Of a stretch of DNA of 64,000 nucleotides, positions 1-9,790 are shown piece after piece. Both the position numbers and the translations under genes were made by a program. How positions within the stretch are numbered: position 1 is the stretch's first letter; every line of letters begins with the position of its first letter. The notes below the pieces were generated by a model. It ran no database searches and was not told the origin of the DNA. It worked only from the letters and a program-made list of their open reading frames with translations. The stretch is from an uncultured Methanoregulaceae archaeon (GTDB taxonomy: Archaea > Halobacteriota > Methanomicrobia > Methanomicrobiales > Methanospirillaceae). The stretch spans positions 2,208,001 to 2,272,000 of the forward strand of contig CAVTTL010000001.1 of NCBI GenBank assembly GCA_963737635.1, given 5' to 3'.

Positions 1-666
1 ATCTCGGTCGGTTTTGAGACGACAGCCCCAACCGTCGCTGCCTCTATCCTGACGCATCCTCCGGAAAACTTCTCGATCCTTTCCTGTCACCGGGTCGTTC
101 CCCCGGCAATGAAGTGGCTGCTTGAGCAGGGGGAGGCAAAACTCGACGGTTTTGTGTTACCCGGCCATGTCTGCACGGTGATGGGATACGAGGAGTACGA
201 GCAGTTCCCAGTCCCGCAGGTCGTTGCCGGTTTCGAGGCCGAGGATATCCTGCTTGGTCTGGTGATGCTGGTCGAGCAGATCCGCGAAGGAAAACACCGG
301 GTCGATAACGCCTATCCGCGTGCGGTCACCCGGGATGGGAACGTCAAGGCAAAGAAGATTATGTACGAGGTCTTTGAGTCGTCCGACGTTGAGTGGCGTG
401 GTTTCCCGGTTATCCCGCAGTCCGGACTCAGGCTCAAGAAAGAGTTTGAGCAGTACGACGCCCAGAAGAAGTTCGATATTGTATACAAGAAAGTGAGCAA
501 GCACTCCGCCTGTATCTGCGACCGGGTACTCCGCGGGATTGCCGAGCCGACCGACTGCAAACTCTTCGGCAAGGTCTGTACGCCCCGGACACCTGTCGGG
601 CCGTGCATGGTGAGCCATGAGGGGGCCTGCAAAATCTGGCATCTTTACCAGGTCAAAAAGCAGTAA
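1..666 (+). CDS. hypD: Hydrogenase maturation protein HypD (5'-truncated by window edge)
   Basis: Frame is open from base 1 (ISVGFETTAPT, the GFETT motif); also PGHV and the C-terminal C-x2-C...CKLFGKVCTP..PVGPCMVSHEGAC Fe-S motif. Confidence 0.95.
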   Translation: MSVGFETTAPTVAASILTHPPENFSILSCHRVVPPAMKWLLEQGEAKLDGFVLPGHVCTVMGYEEYEQFPVPQVVAGFEAEDILLGLVMLVEQIREGKHRVDNAYPRAVTRDGNVKAKKIMYEVFESSDVEWRGFPVIPQSGLRLKKEFEQYDAQKKFDIVYKKVSKHSACICDRVLRGIAEPTDCKLFGKVCTPRTPVGPCMVSHEGACKIWHLYQVKKQ

Positions 667-687
667 GGTGACTGGAGAACCTTCTCA

Positions 688-694
688 TTTATAT
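688..694 (+). promoter_or_regulatory. Putative TATA box (TTTATAT), probably the original tRNA-Arg promoter
   Basis: Lies ~32 nt upstream of the duplicated tRNA 5' end at 726. Confidence 0.5.
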
Positions 695-722
695 GGAAGC
701 ACACAAGAATAAGTATGGTAAA

Positions 723-737
723 TTTGCCTCGGTAGGG
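723..737 (+). repeat. 15-bp direct repeat copy 1 (TTTGCCTCGGTAGGG), containing the first 12 nt of tRNA-Arg
   Basis: Identical to 2503-2517. Confidence 0.9.
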
Positions 738-2502
738 AGTCCGGGTGCCGACGGTAATTTGCTCTGTTTTTAATCAATTACAAAATCAAAAGCGCGCGGA
801 AAAATCTAGCATTTAAATGTTGAATCAAGAATACAGAGTCAACTGTGAAAAATGCAAAAATTATGCAAAGATAATCCTTAACCGTGTTTGTCCCTTTTAG
901 ATGAGATATATATCTGGAAAAGTGTTAACTGCAATCCTTAATTGAAAGTATCACGATAATTGTTAAATTCATCAAGATGATTTAACGTTCCTGCTTTAGT
1001 TCTCTCTTCTATGGACATGAATAAATCAGGATTATAAAAAAAATTGGGGTATCTAATATAGTTCATTTCTACATCATAAAACGCTTCGTCCTTCTTAATT
1101 TGTTCTTCTAATAATTCTGGTATAAAATTGGCTTTTACTATTTTAGCAAAAGGAAGAATTTCTTGTCTATCATTTTTGTCAAGAACTGCGTGGCGTGTAA
1201 CAACTCCAATTAGTTTATTATTAGAAATTACTGGACACCCACTGTTTCCCCAATATATCCTTAAATCTCCCCAAAAGTAATCCAAATCTGATGATGCCAT
1301 CGATACCTTTCCGAAGGTAAAACTAGGAAGAACGATATCATCTGAAAAATATTCTTCGTATTTTTCAGTTATTATTTTCTGTTTTTTAATCTGAGAGATA
1401 TCTTCTGGGAAACCAACTGTAAAAATATCTTCACCTTCTTGGATAGGTTCTTTGGCTATTTCTTCAAATGCAATTGGTTGATATCCAAGCATAAGGAGCT
1501 CTTCTCCAAATGTAGGTTGACTCATGAAAATTCTAGTTGCGAATTCACATAAACGTGGTCGTAACGAGATTATTGCAAGGTCAATATTTTGATGAACCGT
1601 AACAGCAGAATCAATAGAATCAGATTCCGTCAATTGTATAGATTTGGAAGCTGCAATTTCTTCCCCGTCGTGTCCAAAAGGGACATTATCCCGAGTTACT
1701 TGAAGACGCAATACCTTTTTATCATCGAAATAAAGATTTTTAGTAATTATTCGTCTTTTGATTTCATCGTTTAATTCATACAACAACGGGATTCTAAATA
1801 GCTGTTTAGTCGATAAAGAAGTACTTAATTTGGTTTTATCATTCAACAAATGAGCAACAGTAATTAAAAAATATTTCTTTTTGTATGATACAAAAATTGC
1901 AGTTCCGGATATTCTATAATCATCACGATTTTGTCTTAATTCAATATTCACAACACTATGTTTCCATCGTTGTAAGGATTCCATAGTACATTATCATATA
2001 CATAATATTTTATTTCTTAATTTCGAAATTTTTCTATAAGTTTTTTGTTGTAATGTCTCCGGAATCTCCCCCTAAAGTCTCACATGCCTTGATATTCACC
2101 TCATACGAGGGCGCCTGATACATCACAGTTGGGTCATTTCTCTTTTTACCGGAAATAACTGTCTCGATGTGGCAGTATCCCCCTTCCGATCCGTGCGGGT
2201 TCATAATATTCGAGAGGGCGCGGGACGGCTGGAAGGCCCTCACCCTGTGCCCGATACCTCCCGAACCGTTTGGGACTGGGAGACTACTAGATACCCAACA
2301 ATAAATACAGTATCATCGGGGTCGACGAAGCCTTTTTCTTCCCACTTTTGGAGAGCTTTAATACCATTAAACGTGTTGTTAATATGGAACTGTGATTCAT
2401 CGAGCGTTGGTTATTCCTTCACCGTCGCGGTTATCTTTGTTACCATACAGGATGATTCGCGCTGGGGAAGTCAGGCTAGCGCACCATGGACATGGTTGCC
2501 TG
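738..2502. mobile_element. Remnant integrated element in the 5' end of tRNA-Arg(CCG)
   Basis: Bounded by a 15-bp direct repeat overlapping the tRNA 5' end; largely AT-rich; no integrase or transposase visible. Confidence 0.6.
938..1984 (-). CDS. Trypsin-like (S1/PA clan) serine protease
   Basis: Catalytic triad motifs ITVAHL (His), IDLAII (Asp), WGNSGCPV (Ser); AT-rich; no signal peptide. Confidence 0.85.
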   Translation of the reverse strand: MESLQRWKHSVVNIELRQNRDDYRISGTAIFVSYKKKYFLITVAHLLNDKTKLSTSLSTKQLFRIPLLYELNDEIKRRIITKNLYFDDKKVLRLQVTRDNVPFGHDGEEIAASKSIQLTESDSIDSAVTVHQNIDLAIISLRPRLCEFATRIFMSQPTFGEELLMLGYQPIAFEEIAKEPIQEGEDIFTVGFPEDISQIKKQKIITEKYEEYFSDDIVLPSFTFGKVSMASSDLDYFWGDLRIYWGNSGCPVISNNKLIGVVTRHAVLDKNDRQEILPFAKIVKANFIPELLEEQIKKDEAFYDVEMNYIRYPNFFYNPDLFMSIEERTKAGTLNHLDEFNNYRDTFN

Positions 2503-2517
2503 TTTGCCTCGGTAGGG
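2503..2517 (+). repeat. 15-bp direct repeat copy 2
   Basis: Identical to 723-737. Confidence 0.9.
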
Positions 2518-2577
2518 TAGTGGACATCCTAGAAGCCTCCGGAGCTTTTGACCCGGGTTCAAATCCCGGCCGAGGCG
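2506..2577 (+). tRNA. tRNA-Arg(CCG), intronless, CCA not encoded
   Basis: Acceptor stem GCCTCGG/CCGAGGC; anticodon arm GAAGC-CTCCGGA-GCTTT; T arm CCGGG-TTCAAAT-CCCGG; discriminator G. Confidence 0.97.
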
Positions 2578-2745
2578 CTTCACTTTTTAAGTCCAAATCA
2601 TTAACAAATAGGGACCCCATTTAATTTCCGGATGGGGCGTCATCCCTTTCAAGTCTGAATCTCCTCTCAAAAAATTATTCCATTGAGCAACGATTTATGC
2701 AGGCTACACGTATTGAGAAATACTTCTTTGTCAAATCTAAAAATC

Positions 2746-3504
2746 TTAAATTTTATCATCCATTAGCGGAATCGTGTCAAATTTTGTCCCGTATAATTTG
2801 ACATGTTTTTGATAATCTTCGAACGTTAAATATTCATCGATTAGAAATTCAAAAAATGGATATATATCCCAAGCCCAATCCCGTGCCCACGCTGGCTCAT
2901 TATTTCGTTTGGTTATATCAGCTACCGAATTATCAAATGCAGGATTTATTTCAAAATAGGAAACCTCACCTACAGATGATTTAGTAAGAACACTTTCCAG
3001 TTTTTGAAAATTTTCTTGATATGTTTTGCCTACAGAGAATCTAGCGATTTTAATTTTATCGTTCTTGAACAATTTAGTATAATTTAAATGAATATAGGGG
3101 TCTCTGAACTCTTGTACTCGTTTTAAAAAATTGATAACGAATTTGGGGAAAAGAGGAGTAGTAGAACATTTTCTTCTCTTTCCAGTTGTATCTTCAGAAT
3201 ATTTTATGGAATGTGCTAATGGTCCTTGCATTCTTACATTGTCATGTACAAAAATAATTTCGTTAATTGTAACTTCAATAAGTTGTCCGAGTAACATAAT
3301 TCCGGGATGATACAATCCGTACAGAATGCATCTATAAGAGTCATAATAGATTGAATATAAATGAGGTTTTGACATAAATTTTGGATGTAACGAGTTATAG
3401 AGTCGTGGAAGTTTAACTTCATTGATTTCCATTTCGTCATTTAATCTGGTAGCATGATCTTTTAAGTCTAAATTAGCCCACAATGAAATCTCATTATCGA
3501 CCAT
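2746..3504 (-). CDS. Hypothetical protein, probable HEPN-superfamily (DUF4145-like) domain
   Basis: N-terminal helix (SYRCILYGLY...LLGQLIE) and Rx4H motif RDPYIH; AT-rich. Confidence 0.55.
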   Translation of the reverse strand: MVDNEISLWANLDLKDHATRLNDEMEINEVKLPRLYNSLHPKFMSKPHLYSIYYDSYRCILYGLYHPGIMLLGQLIEVTINEIIFVHDNVRMQGPLAHSIKYSEDTTGKRRKCSTTPLFPKFVINFLKRVQEFRDPYIHLNYTKLFKNDKIKIARFSVGKTYQENFQKLESVLTKSSVGEVSYFEINPAFDNSVADITKRNNEPAWARDWAWDIYPFFEFLIDEYLTFEDYQKHVKLYGTKFDTIPLMDDKI

Positions 3505-3727
3505 TATTCAGAATAAAACATTAGTATAATTAAGTATTTGTTTCGCGATTTCACTTGAAAGGTAATTTAAGGCTAAAACGCACTCTTGAAACTCAATTTT
3601 TTTACACCATTCTCATCAGCAATCGTCTTAAATCCTCATTCTTCCTTTTACTCTATTCAAAAGGACTTTTCAATAACTACCAGAGAGATCCCCAAACCAA
3701 TATGTGAGAACCAGCATCGGTTTTCTC

Positions 3728-4651
3728 TCACCCCAACCATTCCGGATTCCTGCTGGTCGAATCAAACACGTGCGTCGTCTTATACAGCTCATATTTCCCC
3801 TTCGTCGCAGCCTTGGCTGTCCGTGCGAGCAACTCCCGGGTCTCATCCACCGTCATCGGGCGAAACGTCCGGGCCGCCATGAGCGCCTGATCCAGCACCT
3901 GCATAGAATCGCAGCCGGTTATAACGACGCTCGTCGGGAGGCTCATCGCGTAATGCAGGCATTCAACGGCTGTCACTATCCCGCTGTCGAAAATGTACCG
4001 GTCGCCCATCGGCTTCATCCCGAGCACACCGGTCCCGTCCTGCACTAGAGCCGGCAAGACCTTCTTTTCAAAGCTCTCGAAATGGGCGTCCATCACGTTC
4101 AGGGGCATCTGGACCGTATCGAACCGGAAGTGGTGGCGGGTCGCGGTCTCAAGCATCTTTATGTGGAACTCCGGGTGCTTATGGCCGGTAAAGCCGATAT
4201 AGCGGACTTTTCCCTCACGTTGTGCGTCGATCACGGCCTCCAGTGCACCACCCTCAGCAAAGATCCGGTCCGGATCGTCAGCACGGATAATTTCATGGAA
4301 CTGCAGGAGATCAACATGATCGGTCTGGAGTCTCGCAAGCGATTCGTCGATCTGGCGGGCGGCAGAGATCCGGTCGCGGCCGTCAATCTTTGTCATCAGG
4401 AATGCCCGCTCGCGGTACCCGTTGCGGAGCGCTTTCCCCATCCTGACCTCGCTTCGTCCTTCGTTGTAATCCCAGCAGTTATCAAGAAACGTGATCCCGT
4501 TGTCGATCGCGGTGCGGATGATGCGGATGCTCTCCGGCTCCGAAAGATCCGGCAGACCCAGATGAGCCCCGCCTAGACCGATGACCGAAACCCGTTCCCC
4601 GGTGCGCCCGAGGATCCGGGTGGGAATCTCACTTCCCTCTGAGTGTTCCAT
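3728..4651 (-). CDS. Aldo/keto reductase family oxidoreductase
   Basis: LGRTGERVSVIGLGG, FLDNCWDY, LMTKI, SLARLQTDHVDLLQFH, GKVRYIGFTGH. Confidence 0.92.
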   Translation of the reverse strand: MEHSEGSEIPTRILGRTGERVSVIGLGGAHLGLPDLSEPESIRIIRTAIDNGITFLDNCWDYNEGRSEVRMGKALRNGYRERAFLMTKIDGRDRISAARQIDESLARLQTDHVDLLQFHEIIRADDPDRIFAEGGALEAVIDAQREGKVRYIGFTGHKHPEFHIKMLETATRHHFRFDTVQMPLNVMDAHFESFEKKVLPALVQDGTGVLGMKPMGDRYIFDSGIVTAVECLHYAMSLPTSVVITGCDSMQVLDQALMAARTFRPMTVDETRELLARTAKAATKGKYELYKTTHVFDSTSRNPEWLG

Positions 4652-4822
4652 GCTTCCTGGTCCCTCCTGCTTTTGTGAGAGGGACTTGTGAACGGCAACA
4701 CATTAAATTGTTGATAGTGCGCTTTTGAATCCGGTCCCGTATTGGCAGATCCGGTAAAACTATACGATAGACCCGTTAGGAAGCGGTTTTGCTCAAGTCT
4801 TATAGTTGCAAAAAAAACTGTG

Positions 4823-4868
4823 CATAATGCCAAAAAGTTTATACATTATGCCAAATATACAATGCATG
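4823..4868. promoter_or_regulatory. Putative operator repeats upstream of the Ig-like surface gene
   Basis: CATAATGCCAAA / CATTATGCCAAA repeated 21 bp apart; 4844-4868 matches 5816-5840 at 18/25. Confidence 0.45.
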
Positions 4869-4875
4869 AAACCTT

Positions 4876-5733
4876 ATGAAACACCAGAACCTTGTAATCG
4901 GCAGCATTCTTGCTGTCGGTATTATTGCCACCTTAATCTGCGTCGGCATGGTCACCGGATATTCGGTATTCAAACCATTCATCTCCGTTAAACCGGTAAG
5001 TAACGTGAACACGAGCGTCCAATCCTCTGCTATGGAAAGCACCCCGGTTGATACACCACCGTACATCGCCATTGATCCCATCGCCAACAAAACAACCGGC
5101 GATCTTCTGATCGTTACCGGTTCAACGAATCTCCCGGCAGACGCATCTCTAATGATTCAGGTAGGCGGCACTGGAGGAAATACCGAGGTAAACGCAGGAA
5201 CCAACGGCGTTCACCGGTATTCCATGCCGATCGACACTTCCATCTTAAAACCGGGCACGCTCAACATAACCGTGACCCAGATGATCGGTGACCCGGCAAA
5301 AGGAACGTACAGGCCGGGGACCGTCAAAGCGACCGCCTCCTTCACGCTGAACGGCACCTCCCTTGCAAGTGCCACACCGGTACAACCAACAATCACTGCA
5401 AGCAATTACATCCATTTAAACGCAATCGGTAACCGGTCTGTCGGGGATCAGTTCCTCATCACCGGAACTACCAGTCTACCCATAGGCACCAACCTGCTCT
5501 GGCAGATCATGCCGGACACCGGAACACCGCCGACCGGCGTCAATATGACCGCAAGTGGTGACGGGGGAAATAACATGGTAACGAAAGGCGACGGCACAGC
5601 AAACCGGGTATCGTTTGCCGCCGATATGAGCCGACAAGTACCGGGGAAGTGGGTGGTCCTTGTGGGGGTAGCAAAAGAAGGCCAATTTGAGATGGAAAAA
5701 CCTCTGGGAATCGCCTACTTTACCCTGCAATAA
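4876..5733 (+). CDS. Membrane-anchored/secreted protein with two Methanomicrobiales Ig-like repeats
   Basis: N-terminal hydrophobic helix; two IAIDPI..GD...TG(S/T)T(N/S)LP repeats. Confidence 0.75.
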   Translation: MKHQNLVIGSILAVGIIATLICVGMVTGYSVFKPFISVKPVSNVNTSVQSSAMESTPVDTPPYIAIDPIANKTTGDLLIVTGSTNLPADASLMIQVGGTGGNTEVNAGTNGVHRYSMPIDTSILKPGTLNITVTQMIGDPAKGTYRPGTVKATASFTLNGTSLASATPVQPTITASNYIHLNAIGNRSVGDQFLITGTTSLPIGTNLLWQIMPDTGTPPTGVNMTASGDGGNNMVTKGDGTANRVSFAADMSRQVPGKWVVLVGVAKEGQFEMEKPLGIAYFTLQ

Positions 5734-5813
5734 GCAGGTATTCAGGCTAGGGAAATACACCCCATTCACCCTTTTCCGAAAACCGAAATGCTGGATCAAA
5801 GATAAAAATTTTT

Positions 5814-5840
5814 CACGTAATGCACAAAATACATTACATG
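5814..5840. promoter_or_regulatory. Imperfect palindromic operator CACGTAATG-N9-CATTACATG
   Basis: 8/9 inverted repeat ending 10 nt upstream of ATG 5851. Confidence 0.5.
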
Positions 5841-5850
5841 TGGCGCGCCT

Positions 5851-6690
5851 ATGAAAAAGAAATATCTCACCTATGCTGGTATTGCATCTGCCGTGATATT
5901 GGTCGTCATGTTCGCCATTATCCTCCTGACCGGTTCCTTTTCCATCTTCTCCACTGCTACCATCGATCCCATCCCGGATCAGGTTCCCGGAGATCTCATA
6001 GTCATCACGGGGACGACGAACCTTATGGCCGGCACGATGCTGGAACTGGATATTGTCAATGCCTCCTATGCTCCCGGGAAAAATTCCCCGGTCGGGAGAG
6101 TGGATGCGTTCATTGTCCGGGGTGGGGGAATGGCGAACAGCTGGTCAGGCATACTTGACACTTCCAGCTTCCCGCCCGGAGAATACGAGATAAATGCTTA
6201 TTCGACGAACGATACCGGTTCCCGGGGTAATCTTCTTGCCACGGCCCGGCTCAGGCTGACGAATACCACATCTAACCAGGACAAAATCATCTACAATCTT
6301 ACGTCACAAGGATCGGTTGCCGGGCCCTGCAAAGTTATCATGATTGATACGTTACCGGGTAAATTCACTAACCGTACCTATACAATCACGGGAACAACCA
6401 CCCTTCCCACCGGGACGATATTGCTTTTGGAAGTATTTCCCACGGAAATTGATGTGAGCGTGAACATGGGAACCGGGGGAATGTCGGCGTCCGGCGTCGG
6501 GGCATCAGATGATGTGGAAGTCGTCCGTGGAACCGGGAATACGAACTTGTGGTCTACGGATGTCGACCTTTCAAAATTCCCGCCGAATGAATATCTCATC
6601 AATATTAGTAATGACCGGATCGATACCAAGACTTATGCAACAATATACGGGGACACTTACTGCTCAGAACGATTTACCCTTTCGGGGTGA
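5851..6690 (+). CDS. Membrane-anchored protein with two Ig-like repeats (paralog of 4876)
   Basis: N-terminal TM; TIDPI..GDLIVITGTTNL and ITGTTTLPTG repeats. Confidence 0.75.
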   Translation: MKKKYLTYAGIASAVILVVMFAIILLTGSFSIFSTATIDPIPDQVPGDLIVITGTTNLMAGTMLELDIVNASYAPGKNSPVGRVDAFIVRGGGMANSWSGILDTSSFPPGEYEINAYSTNDTGSRGNLLATARLRLTNTTSNQDKIIYNLTSQGSVAGPCKVIMIDTLPGKFTNRTYTITGTTTLPTGTILLLEVFPTEIDVSVNMGTGGMSASGVGASDDVEVVRGTGNTNLWSTDVDLSKFPPNEYLINISNDRIDTKTYATIYGDTYCSERFTLSG

Positions 6691-7274
6691 TTTTCATGAA
6701 ACGCCTAACCTATCTTACCTGTACCCTCATCGTGGCCTGTATGGTGGCCGCAATGGTCGGGTGGTCGATGGCAGCCGGTAATTTTCTGGTCCCGGTCATT
6801 GCCATCCCGCTCGGAATCATCGTTGTCCTTGCCTGCCGCGCGCAGGTTGACGTTGTGATAGCAGACGAACGGGAGAAGAGGATCCGGAGTAAAGCCGCTC
6901 TTCGTACACTCGAAGTTGTCGTTATCGGAGGGGCGATTGTCGCGATTATCCTGTATTCCTTTGTGGTGAGCATCCCTCTTACCCCGATAATCACCGGAAA
7001 AATATTCATTAATGCTGACGGGACGCAATCCATGACAATAACCGAGTATAAGCCAGGAAGTGTACCAGGCCCGCAAACCCTTATCCGACAAACAACCATT
7101 CACAACCTGAATGCCATGAACGAATCCGAGGCAATAGCGTACTGTTCCTATGTCAGGGAGGGTTTCCAGGAAAACGAGAACAGGGGGCTTGTCGGTATGA
7201 CCGTAGGAAGTGTTGTCGTCATTCTCCTGGGAACGTTCGGAGCATTTTATCTCTATTACGACAAAAAATACTGA
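6687..7274 (+). CDS. DUF2178-family membrane protein with an extracellular insertion
   Basis: TM helices; DEREKRIRSKAA motif; directly upstream of an XRE HTH gene. Confidence 0.7.
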   Translation: MIFMKRLTYLTCTLIVACMVAAMVGWSMAAGNFLVPVIAIPLGIIVVLACRAQVDVVIADEREKRIRSKAALRTLEVVVIGGAIVAIILYSFVVSIPLTPIITGKIFINADGTQSMTITEYKPGSVPGPQTLIRQTTIHNLNAMNESEAIAYCSYVREGFQENENRGLVGMTVGSVVVILLGTFGAFYLYYDKKY

Positions 7275-7288
7275 TCCTCAAGGTTGCA

Positions 7289-7522
7289 ATGAAAAACAGG
7301 ATTAAAGTACTCCGGGCTGAGCGAAATATGACACAGGAGCAGCTCGCAGAGCGTGCCGGAGTGACCCGGAATACGATCATCTCCATGGAGAAAGACAAAT
7401 ATTGCCCATCGTTAAAACTGGGGTACCGGATTGCGCATGTTTTCGGGGTCGGCATTGATGATGTCTTTACCTATGAAGAGGACAAGGATGGGCCATCATC
7501 AGATTCTAATGATGATACATAA
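7289..7522 (+). CDS. XRE/Cro-family HTH transcriptional regulator
   Basis: MKNRIKVLRAERNMTQEQLAERAGVTRNTIISMEKDKYCPSLKL. Confidence 0.93.
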   Translation: MKNRIKVLRAERNMTQEQLAERAGVTRNTIISMEKDKYCPSLKLGYRIAHVFGVGIDDVFTYEEDKDGPSSDSNDDT

Positions 7523-7541
7523 CATCGAAAAAACAGGTAAT

Positions 7542-8346
7542 TTAAAAGATCAGACTCGGTGAGAGGAAAGCGACGGCGGTAAATCCCGCTGCCGCGACTA
7601 CAAGACTGCTCATCAGGACGTAATCCCCGGTTGCAAACCTGCGCTCGCGGACACGGGTCCGGGTTCCCGTCCGGTATCCCCGCATATCGATAGTCAGGCC
7701 GAGCACCGTAGAACGCAGGAGCGCATTTGAGACCAGCGGGACGATTATGGGCGAGACGCTCCGGATCTTCCCGAGTACCCCGGTGCCCGGATTATAGCCC
7801 CGGGCGAGCTGTGCCTCGTGGATCCGCGTCCCCTCTATCTGGAGGGTCGGGATGAACCGGAGTGCGATAATAAACATCAGGATATAATCGACCGGCATGT
7901 GCAACCGGTCCAAAGCATGCACCAGGTCACGGGGCTGGGTTGAGATCAGGAAGAGCTGGAACGCGAAGATCAGCACGACGAACCGGAGTGCAAGGATAAT
8001 CCCGATCACGATCGCCCCGGCCGTGACTGGTATTGCCCCGCCTATCACCGGTACTCCGGCGGGAATAAGCGTGCCAATGGTCGCGCCATTGGGCATCGTG
8101 AGAATCGTGATAACGATAAACACAACACTCATGATAAGGAGAAGCCTGAGCTGCTGGATCAGTTCCCGGTGCAGATGGCTGATATACGCGATAAGAAGCA
8201 GGACCGCGACCATCAGGAGAAGGAGGGGGATGCCGGTCGCAAGGACACACATCACCGCTACGACGATGATAAAGAGGATCTTTGTAAACGGGGAGAGCCG
8301 GTGGAAGAAGCCGTCCTTGTGGACGTACCTGCAGGATCTCAGCCAT
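7542..8346 (-). CDS. ecfT: ECF transporter T component (EcfT/CbiQ); +1 frameshift near 8328
   Basis: MAEILQ/YVHKDGFFHRLSPFTK N-terminus; ALRFIP, ARG and MRG motifs; extra G at CAG-G-TAC. Confidence 0.85.
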
Positions 8347-9790
8347 GGGCCGGCTCCTCCACTCTCGTGTCTGATACTATTCGACCCTGGTTCATGGTGA
8401 TGATGCGGTCGGCGCAGTACCGTGCGATGTCCCGGTTATGGGTGATAACAACGACCGTATGCCCTTTCTGCTGGTGCTTCCTGAGGAGCTCAATCACAAG
8501 CCGCGCTTCTTCGCCGTCAAGGCCGGTCGTGGGCTCGTCAAGGACAATGATCTTTGGCTGCATGGCAACCACGCAGGCGATGGCAAGCCGCTGGCGCTCG
8601 CCCCGGGAAAGCCACCGGGGGTAAAGCATTTTGGTGTGCAGGAGGCCGGCATCTTCGAGTGCCGCATCGATAACGACGTCTTTGTTCCCGATGCCGAGGT
8701 TGTCAAGGCCAAAGGCGATCTCGTCCCGCACGGTATCGGCAAAGAACATGTGGTCCGGGTTCTGGAAGACCAGACCCACATCCCGGGCTAATTCGGTAAT
8801 CGTGGAGTCCCGGGTATTCCTGCCATTTATAATCACATCCCCGGTTGTCGGTGTGAGGAGGCGGTTGAACTGCCGGACAAGCGTGGTTTTGCCGGAACCG
8901 TTCTCCCCGACAATGGCAACAAATTCACCGGCACCGATACTCAAGGAAACGTCATGCAGGGCCGGCACATCACCATACGAATAGGAAAGGTTCCGGACGG
9001 CAATGACCGGGGGTGCATCAACCGGTAAAGCAGGGGAGGAACCGTGGTTCCTGATCCCGGAAAAATCCGGGATGACCATGTTTCTGATCCGTTCATCCTT
9101 GAGCTCTTCGTCGGGTGCGCCGATCGCTGAAATGGTGCCATGCTCCATCACCACAAGGGTATCAACGATTTCTTTGAATTGGTCGTATTTGTGCTCAACG
9201 ATGAGGAGGGTTTTTCCCTGACTCTTGAGGTTTGAGAGAATCTCCACGATCCGCCGGGTCGCGTGCTCGTCCAGCTCTGAGGTTGGTTCATCGAGGATCA
9301 GGACGTCGTTTCCCAGCGCAAGCGTCGCGGCAAGGGCGACACGCTGCTTCTGGCCCCCGGAGAGGTTGTGAGGGGAACGGTCTTTCAATGCCGAGAGGTA
9401 CGTAACCTCCATGATCGCGGCAAGGCGGCGTTCAATCTCGTCAGGGGCAAGACCCCGGTACTCGAGCGCGGAGAGGATCTCCTCTTCGACGGTCGTAAAG
9501 ATCATCTGCGCCTCGGCGTCGTCAAAAACGATCCCGATGGTTCTGGCGATATCGGATAAACCGGCGTAATCCGCGACGTTTTTGCCGTTGATGGTAACAA
9601 GGCCGGCTTTTTTCCCGCCGTACTCATGGGAAAGGATGCCGCACGCTGCAAGGCAGAGCGTGGTCTTTCCGGCGCCGGAAGGGCCGGTGACCATAATACA
9701 CCGGCCTTTCTCTAAAACAAGGGACAAACGGTGCAGGGCCTCCTGCACCGTGTGCGGATAGGTGTAACTGACGTCAGAGAGTTCGATCAT
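8339..9790 (-). CDS. ECF transporter ATPase with two fused ABC domains
   Basis: Two Walker A motifs (GPSGAGKT, GENGSGKT); LSGGQKQR and LSRGERQR signatures. Confidence 0.92.
   Translation of the reverse strand: MIELSDVSYTYPHTVQEALHRLSLVLEKGRCIMVTGPSGAGKTTLCLAACGILSHEYGGKKAGLVTINGKNVADYAGLSDIARTIGIVFDDAEAQMIFTTVEEEILSALEYRGLAPDEIERRLAAIMEVTYLSALKDRSPHNLSGGQKQRVALAATLALGNDVLILDEPTSELDEHATRRIVEILSNLKSQGKTLLIVEHKYDQFKEIVDTLVVMEHGTISAIGAPDEELKDERIRNMVIPDFSGIRNHGSSPALPVDAPPVIAVRNLSYSYGDVPALHDVSLSIGAGEFVAIVGENGSGKTTLVRQFNRLLTPTTGDVIINGRNTRDSTITELARDVGLVFQNPDHMFFADTVRDEIAFGLDNLGIGNKDVVIDAALEDAGLLHTKMLYPRWLSRGERQRLAIACVVAMQPKIIVLDEPTTGLDGEEARLVIELLRKHQQKGHTVVVITHNRDIARYCADRIITMNQGRIVSDTRVEEPAHG

Follow-up and report, generated by a model that had tools for sequence, protein, structure and literature searches.

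Where does a tRNA gene obtain its promoter when the promoter that once preceded it lies on the far side of foreign DNA? This question is raised by the tRNA-Arg(CCG) gene in a 64,000-nt stretch of the genome of an uncultured Methanoregulaceae archaeon (GenBank assembly GCA_963737635.1, contig CAVTTL010000001.1, positions 2,208,001 to 2,272,000; hereafter the window, numbered from its first base). Upstream of this gene the window carries an insertion with defined boundaries, the decayed genes of a tyrosine-integrase element family and a 41-bp box that is conserved among relatives. From these observations we propose, with a probability of about 0.7, that a small integrative plasmid or virus of Methanoregula left the segment 723–2517 as its scar, and that the tRNA has been re-wired to a promoter derived from this element.

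The 15-bp sequence TTTGCCTCGGTAGGG occurs exactly twice in the window, at 723–737 and 2503–2517, on the same strand. Matches to it with up to two mismatches averaged 0.16 in shuffled sequence, and two such matches were reached in 2 of 100 shuffles. The sole tRNA gene of the window, tRNA-Arg(CCG), is located at 2506–2578 on the + strand (ARAGORN; the Rfam tRNA model concurs at 59.5 bits, and the Rfam scan revealed no other RNA family), and it is the only tRNA with a CCG anticodon in the genome. Since the tRNA starts at 2506, the repeat consists of three leader bases and tRNA bases 1–12. The left copy (723–737, attL core) ends in a 12-nt tRNA stub at 726–737, and the right copy (2503–2517, attR core) opens the intact gene. 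To the left of the integration site lies the chromosomal gene hypD, whose 3' part occupies 1–666 of the + strand (Pfam HypD, E 7.4e-90; 68–83% DNA identity in relatives). It is followed by the orphaned native promoter and leader of the tRNA (681–722, + strand), with the TATA box TTTATAT at 688–694, 31 nt ahead of the stub, and an A/T-rich proximal element at about 710–716.

The intact gene has a different setting. The best 8-mer between -50 and -24 of its start contains four A/T of eight, which places it in the lowest class among the 50 predicted tRNAs of the genome; 38 of the 50 have an 8-mer with at least seven A/T of eight in this interval. The TATA-type A/T-rich 8-mers nearest to the intact tRNA begin at -127 to -130 and at -149/-150, and a T-rich 8-mer, TTATCTTT, begins at -75. 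The first-pass annotation of this DNA had described the duplicated 15 bp with its 12 nt of tRNA, the TATA-like sequence ahead of the stub and the intact tRNA without an A/T-rich box close by, and each of these descriptions proved accurate. The weak subterminal inverted match that it listed is likewise real: GTCCGGGTGC at 739–748 (+ strand) forms an imperfect inverted repeat with GCACCATGGAC at 2481–2491. The left arm may possibly have been an integrase binding site of the former attP. In one intact relative of the element (metagenome locus L109, described below) a perfect 13-bp inverted repeat lies 14 and 15 nt from the core, and the arm in the window is not at the equivalent position.

To define the boundaries of the insertion, window 1–4700 was searched against 31 genomes, comprising the organism's own genome and 30 relatives. 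In six congeners (G015, G003, G004, G009, G007 and G005) the hypD match reaches window base 737 and overlaps the tRNA match by 12–15 bp; the order hypD, promoter, tRNA is uninterrupted in six congeners, and the homology of these empty sites to the left side of the window ends at base 737. The promoter and tRNA alone are contiguous in two more genomes (G012 and G008), but there they lie 1–2 kb away from hypD. In the aligned junctions of L002–L005, G012 and G008 nothing intervenes between the full tRNA and the promoter with its leader, CATTTATATGGA..AAGTAAGGTAAAATTT, and the sequence of the orphaned native promoter stands directly ahead of an intact tRNA in L002–L005, L018–L021 and L030. Because congeners have this empty site (hypD, TATA box, tRNA), which had been predicted from the window alone, the segment 738–2502 is an insertion.

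The duplication is not an artefact of assembly, a possibility that had been named as one that would overturn the interpretation. Contigs of four soil-metagenome runs were aligned to window 400–2900. A single 4596-nt contig of run X1, possibly the source sample, spans 502–2900 with zero differences; the left junction is bridged by short contigs of X4 (447–788) and X5 (483–834), and the right junction by contigs of X3 (2295–2560) and X5 (2057–2536). Misassembly was ruled out by these contigs from other runs, which cross both junctions. A further contig of X5 has 19 differences within hypD and connects 659 with 2505 through 64 other bases; it is the empty site of a related strain and not an excision product of the present one.

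We then looked for intact relatives of the element by searching the 12-mer GCCTCGGTAGGG in 101 genomes of the genus. It was present in 81 genomes, with two copies in 13. A reversed-pattern control matched at a similar rate and most second copies lay in unrelated DNA, so the flanks were read individually. Genuine stubs among the two-copy genomes were found in G084 and G017 only. In G084, the native promoter and the 12-nt stub are followed 5585 bp on by the intact tRNA on the same strand, and the DNA ahead of this tRNA resembles window 2288–2505 at 83% identity. Divergent from the tRNA, with its start 62 bp away, is an open reading frame (ORF) of 421 aa encoding a tyrosine integrase (Pfam Phage_integrase PF00589, E 2.7e-27, 96 bits, cut-off 27.1) with a C-terminal zinc ribbon; its translation shows GFRIGE, HPHIFRHTR and CYAHL, which we read as the putative R..HxxR..Y catalytic residues. 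The G084 element further encodes a 291-aa rolling-circle Rep (Pfam REP_ORF2-G2P, E 9e-8, 32.8 bits, cut-off 27.8) and AT-rich ORFs without a family.

A second complete example is L109, in which the end of hypD, the native promoter and the 12-nt stub are followed 6521 bp later by an integrase (423 aa), the tRNA and an ECF transporter gene. Its replication module differs, consisting of a 536-aa P-loop protein. Larger elements with the same junction and an integrase had been anticipated, and G084 and L109 answer to that expectation. In L109 (6743–7101), a 108-aa ORF begins 21 nt past the stub, so the displaced host promoter could drive a gene of the element, and only when the element is integrated. 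The window has a T5 run after the stub and no + strand ORF after it. This run (767–771, + strand, read from the sequence) lies 30 nt past the stub and is possibly a terminator for transcripts from the orphaned promoter; the elements of G084, G017 and G078 likewise have T-runs close to their left ends.

In G017 the promoter and stub are on one contig, and the same promoter with an intact tRNA is on another. The occupied attL (L026, G017:C34, 566–616) is joined to foreign DNA with a Fic-like gene nearby, and the promoter of the unoccupied copy (L021/L068, G017:C16) differs by one base. The two states could reflect presence and absence of the element in the sampled population, or a duplication. 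A further 12-mer, in G078 (L024, G078:C2:70300-71200), is followed by DNA resembling a left end (..CGGCAATTACCTGTTTTTTT) and has no native promoter ahead; it shares a strand with the tRNA of that genome, which lies 60 kb upstream.

Metagenomes searched with the G084 integrase yielded 16 loci at 59–80% identity, 15 of which include the N-terminus. At 14 of these 15, tRNA-Arg(CCG) is divergent from the integrase and about 60 bp from its start codon; at L100 the tRNA is cut by the contig end. At L110 (1–1400) an integrase of the same clade is divergent from tRNA-Arg(GCG), whose first bases differ, which may represent a switch of target between isoacceptors. A scan of IMG/VR with the G084 integrase found no relatives. 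Four elements that differ in cargo all have their boundary after tRNA base 12, which is expected of an att core and need not be so for a target-site duplication. These results indicate that such elements target the very 5' end of tRNA-Arg(CCG) and leave the native TATA promoter with a 12-nt stub, as the first-pass annotation had it.

The insert itself retains pieces of such an element. On the minus strand, 2446–2273 translates as MVTKITATVKE*PTLDESQFHINNTFNGIKALQKWEEKG.., a 58-codon N-terminal remnant of the tyrosine integrase with TAA at codon 12 (2411–2413) and the catalytic domain deleted. It is 55% identical to residues 1–58 of the G084 integrase (E 2e-16 by tblastn; the whole-genome search agrees), and nothing of that integrase past residue 58 matched in the window. 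The next piece (2034–2261, minus strand) is what remains, about 75 codons, of the C-terminal part of a rolling-circle Rep. Its identity to the C-terminus of a 319-aa ORF in G111 is 82%, and that ORF in turn aligns to the G084 Rep over the HxH region (28% identity, E 5e-17); the assignment follows this chain of homology, the window piece itself being without the HUH part. The earlier statement that no integrase is present is thus corrected by the two remnants. Beyond them lies an intact AT-rich cargo gene for a trypsin-like serine peptidase of 348 aa (938–1984, minus strand; Pfam Trypsin_2, E 4.3e-7, 31.2 bits, cut-off 27.6). Its homologues are 47–56% identical, two of them being named Methanoregula sp. 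proteins by their sources; a search of the other 100 genomes of the genus did not find the gene. The GC (guanine plus cytosine) fraction of this gene is 0.318, compared with 0.316 for the G084 cargo, and PADLOC gave weak protease-domain matches only. No further genes of the G084 element were found in the window. A promoter-like site on the minus strand at 2030–2045 (11.4 bits with a tRNA-promoter matrix) lies 46–61 nt before the start codon of the trypsin-like gene and may be its promoter. Between the integrase remnant and the tRNA, the former spacer (2447–2502, + strand) contains the decayed proximal TATA-like box AAGTCAGGC at 2468–2476 and the right inverted-repeat arm.

The succession of parts in the window (tRNA, then integrase remnant, then Rep remnant, then AT-rich cargo) matches that of G084 minus one internal deletion running from integrase codon 59 into Rep. 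With integrase codons 1–58 only and a stop at codon 12, the window holds a remnant and not an active element. A whole-genome search found no intact integrase of the G084 family and only two broken fragments. The second fragment (L043, G000:C1:272331-275882), about 1.9 Mb from the window, is C-terminal (residues 226–412, 45% identity to the G084 integrase) and follows tRNA-Glu(CTC) on the same strand; this seems to be another decayed element, one of the usual type at a tRNA 3' end. Since the genome has no intact integrase of the family, the suggestion that excision acts as a switch is unlikely to apply here, where only these two broken pieces remain.

A history that would account for this arrangement can be outlined as follows. 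The element would have carried a rolling-circle Rep and a classical tyrosine integrase, whole after integration, and its attP, about 60 bp ahead of the integrase start codon, would have recombined with the first 12 bases of tRNA-Arg(CCG) and one to three leader bases. Conservative site-specific recombination would have rebuilt the tRNA beside the integrase gene (attR) and left the host TATA promoter, joined to a 12-nt stub, at the opposite end (attL). Later, an internal deletion that begins at integrase codon 59 and takes in most of Rep would have made the element immobile; we infer this order of the decay events from the sequence. The orphaned host promoter would now give only a short transcript ending at the nearby T-run.

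The candidate for the present promoter of the tRNA is a 41-bp box, GAGAGCTTTAATACC-N9-GTTGTTAATATGGAAC(T), at 2351–2391 (+ strand) inside the integrase remnant. It was delineated by alignment of 19 genomes of the genus, 14 from the DNA search together with G010, G039, G048, G067 and G078. The internal spacing of the box is constant in all 19, and its distance to the tRNA is 102–118 nt in 15 genomes, 54 nt in two and 35–36 nt in two. Only in G084 is the integrase intact at the box; in the other 18 the integrase frame closes 7–149 codons past it. The DNA left of the box is unrelated across the 19 genomes. Mean pairwise identity among 15 non-redundant genomes was 0.35 left of the box, 0.78 in the box, 0.47 in the leader, 0.47 in the spacer and 1.00 in the first 12 tRNA bases. 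An exact search for the box pattern across genome contigs gave two matches only, both in Methanoregula sp. metagenome-assembled genomes. In intact integrases the box encodes FHINNT..GIK, and relatives at tRNA 3' ends have FH......YA..SI..AL.

Within the box, the TATA-like sequence TTTAATAC (2357–2364) lies 21–22 nt upstream of a second A/T element, TTAATAT (2379–2385). Scored with a crude matrix from 33 tRNA promoters of this genome, the box is the best + strand site in 2300–2505 (7.4 bits; best minus-strand site 4.9 bits). Intact elements have another TATA-like box, ATAAAAGTAT or TATATAAAGAAA, in the spacer, about 29–38 nt from the tRNA and 24–33 nt from the integrase ATG. Accordingly placed A/T-rich 8-mers, at -50 to -24, were present at all 14 metagenome loci with an intact integrase (L100 left out) and in G084 (7/8 A/T), in 5 of the 18 integrase-less remnants (in two of them it is the conserved box itself) and not in the window. 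The proximal A/T box is lost in 13 of these 18 remnants and the distal box is kept in all 18; the proximal box tends to go with the integrase and the distal box to stay with the tRNA.

The tRNA is also one that the organism needs, being the single CCG tRNA in a genome in which CGG is the commonest arginine codon (40% in 545 long ORFs, a rough gene set). These data suggest that transcription of the tRNA most likely continues and that the conserved 41-bp box is probably its replacement promoter. Transcription would start near 2389, with TTTAATAC acting as TATA box and TTAATAT as proximal element, and would run antisense within the first 35 codons of the integrase; the resulting pre-tRNA leader of about 115 nt would be removed by RNase P. 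In the predicted fold of the putative pre-tRNA (overall z -3.4), the leader forms a hairpin of its own, apart from the tRNA; we draw no inference from this.

Several points weigh against this assignment. The score of 7.4 bits is below that of 32 of the 33 training promoters and below the 8.9 bits that the orphaned native promoter receives from the same crude matrix. TATA-like boxes lie 30–58 nt from the tRNA start in this genome, and a leader of about 115 nt would be unusually long. The box is coding sequence in intact elements, so its conservation may be partly inherited rather than selected, and the compared genomes are related to one another, so the counts are not independent. Finally, the genome contains a tRNA-Arg(UCG) gene, whose product might read CGG by wobble.

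This last point leads to the alternative that tRNA-Arg(CCG) is silenced or weakly expressed, with CGG read mainly through tRNA-Arg(UCG) wobble and the gene heading to decay. Such a reading would fit the bare interval at -50 to -24 (at most 4/8 A/T, the lowest class of the 50 tRNAs), the decay in the window of the proximal box of intact elements, the low score of the distal box and the existence of the UCG gene. The tRNA, however, is intact and 94–99% identical to the copies of relatives, it serves a codon that makes up 40% of arginine codons, and 13 integrase-less genomes without the proximal box retain both an intact tRNA and the distal box. The first-pass annotation had proposed that the insertion could silence or re-wire the gene. 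Silencing is unlikely because CGG is so frequent and because many species retain this promoter-less arrangement together with an intact tRNA; re-wiring appears to be the better reading. Less probable still is that the tRNA depends on read-through from a promoter further upstream, either the orphan at 688 or a site in the cargo, and that the box serves otherwise, for example as a binding site or a leftward promoter. There are promoter-like sites on the + strand at 1208, 1710 (11.3 bits), 1853/1855 and 2291, and the box is near-symmetric, with TATA-like motifs on both strands. Transcripts from upstream would nevertheless meet T-runs at 767–771 and 2333–2337, the unrelated DNA left of the box in the 19 genomes means that nothing upstream is shared, and the best minus-strand score around the box falls short of its + strand score.

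The remaining alternative concerns the element rather than the promoter. Casposons are flanked by short direct repeats in a tRNA gene, and the first-pass annotation had compared the 15-bp repeat to such a target-site duplication; the repeat's length and location in a tRNA gene, together with the weak subterminal inverted match, would agree with a casposon or transposon remnant. The repeat is instead the identity core of a tyrosine-recombinase att site: an integrase remnant adjoins it, it stops after tRNA base 12 in each of four separate elements that differ in their cargo, and relatives within the integrase family use 16-bp cores at the 3' ends of tRNAs. Intact relatives have the integrase and no Cas1-like gene, and G084 has a Rep; no Cas1 domain was detected among the eight ORFs of the G084 element. 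In the insert, the two scanned ORFs match Trypsin_2 or nothing, and the other remnants are those of integrase and Rep. The tyrosine integrases, the recombinase identity core and the lack of Cas1 set the present family apart from casposons, and we reject a casposon or transposon origin as extremely improbable.

A further question is how the integrases at tRNA-Arg 5' ends relate to those that use tRNA 3' ends. Homologues of the G084 integrase, mostly at 40–46% identity, were found in 66 of the 101 genomes of the genus; of these, the 20 best full-length homologues were chosen and their loci examined. At 16 of them the tRNA is on the integrase strand with its 3' end 50–170 bp before the integrase start, the usual arrangement, and three have no tRNA. 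The last, G080 (L060), seemed a second case with a divergent tRNA; it shows an odd ARAGORN 'tRNA-Thr' with a tRNA 3'-like fragment nearby, and no repeat of the 5' end of this 'tRNA-Thr' was found in 35 kb. The att cores of the 3'-end type are well defined. At tRNA-Thr(CGT) of G111, a 16-bp exact repeat consists of the last 13 tRNA bases and three trailer bases, with copies 42.6 kb apart, and at tRNA-Gly(GCC) of G073 a 16-bp core of the same layout has copies 15.0 kb apart. These G111:C1 and G073:C1 elements (L091–L094, L063 and L064), with the same integrase family and bounded by the 16-bp att repeats, are presumably intact.

The integrases at tRNA 3' ends resemble those of the present family in sequence (40–46% identity to the G084 integrase, with an N-terminal FH motif common to both) and in having a short att core and an integrase that adjoins the intact tRNA. 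They differ in that the tRNA 3' end faces the integrase, whereas the core of the Arg(CCG) clade is the reverse complement of tRNA bases 1–12 and the leader. Read on the integrase strand, the window core is CCCTA + CCGAGGC + AAA. The layout of CCC, two bases, the seven-base acceptor strand and three bases outside the gene is common to the window core and the 3'-end cores, and stands in the same position with respect to the integrase. When tRNA bases 1–12 are reverse-complemented, the resulting 12-mer differs from the gene's own 3'-terminal 12-mer, CCCGGCCGAGGC, at 2 of 12 positions. A tree was built of 31 integrases, including 15 at tRNA-Arg 5' ends (14 from metagenomes, L112 being left out, and G084). 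A branch with 100/100 support separates these 15 from 13 at tRNA 3' ends and three unassigned; the tree is unrooted, so it does not show the 5'-end clade to be nested among the 3'-end clades.

The correspondence of the cores suggests that 5' targeting may have arisen by mirror-image use of the acceptor stem. We put forward, tentatively and with the odds somewhat against it, the fuller history in which the clade switched from the 3' to the 5' end of the tRNA through the mirror-image acceptor stem, while integrase codons 1–35 doubled as an antisense promoter of the tRNA that was kept after the element decayed. If this history were true, a piece of integrase coding sequence would have been retained as the promoter for the tRNA of the commonest arginine codon in at least 18 species. 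The promoter in intact elements would then fire antisense over the integrase start and could hold the integrase down when the element is integrated.

Integration at the 5' side of a tRNA has a precedent in archaea. According to passages of PMC8371274, archaeal integrases prefer the tRNA 3' end, and pTN3-like integrases are 'unique in archaea' in their use of the tRNA 5' half, which is seldom met in bacteria; the recombinant tRNA is there described as expressed from the integrase promoter. For pTN3, PMC5495485 reports a shared att of 41 bp (tRNA-Leu bases 2–44), disruption of the integrase gene, and a tRNA that is 'separated from its original promoter'. The pTN3/TKV4-like integrases of Thermococcales thus resemble the present family, as far as these passages describe them, in targeting the 5' part of a tRNA and in leaving the rebuilt tRNA off its original promoter (PMC8371274, PMC5495485). 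They are unlike it, in the passages of PMC5495485, in being 'suicidal' integrases of the SSV type, with attP inside the integrase ORF, a gene that is split on integration and hyperthermophile hosts. In the present family the integrase ORF is whole when integrated (421 aa in G084, 423 aa in L109). The attP is situated about 60 bp ahead of the start codon, the core of 12–15 bp is at the extreme 5' end and extends into the leader, and the hosts are Methanoregula. The core is 56–62 bp outside the integrase ORF, which is not the SSV-type position. The two groups are set apart here by published descriptions. Integration at tRNA 5' ends is therefore already known from pTN3-like integrases, and the present family is a variant that differs in mechanism.

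The SNJ2-type or pleolipovirus-like classical tyrosine integrases are a more distant comparison. The best matches of the G084 integrase among deposited viruses are Geoglobus acetivorans pleomorphic virus 1 (31%, residues 165–421), a Methanomicrobiales tailed virus and pleomorphic virus ThalV2; these matches are distant and confined to the catalytic domain. The att of SNJ2 is placed by a passage of PMC8371274 at the amino-acid attachment (3') end of the tRNA, and can be as short as the acceptor end. A limited literature search found nothing on such elements in Methanoregula.

Integrases directed at tRNA genes nearly always take the 3' part and so leave the gene its own promoter. The family offers a second route to 5'-end targeting, with a whole integrase, a core of 12–15 bp and a geometry that mirrors that of sister integrases at 3' ends, and thereby a concrete test of how att-site specificity flips strand. 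It also provides a natural series from empty site through intact element to remnant. A host gene in high demand has apparently been handed over permanently to the promoter of a mobile element, which, if confirmed, would stand as a clear archaeal example of regulatory domestication. Researchers seeking integrase tools for methanogens may also find the short, defined att core of interest.

The DNA on the other side of the tRNA was also inspected. Between the tRNA 3' end and the ECF transporter genes, about 5 kb (2579–7541) is strain-specific and contains an AT-rich 252-aa ORF, an aldo/keto reductase, two secreted proteins, a membrane protein and a helix-turn-helix protein. The 252-aa ORF had no match in Pfam or PADLOC, and no repeat of the tRNA 3' end of at least 10 nt was found in 2601–9000. 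A gap of about 100 bp is all that separates the transporter gene from the tRNA in G015, G003, G012, G009 and L109.

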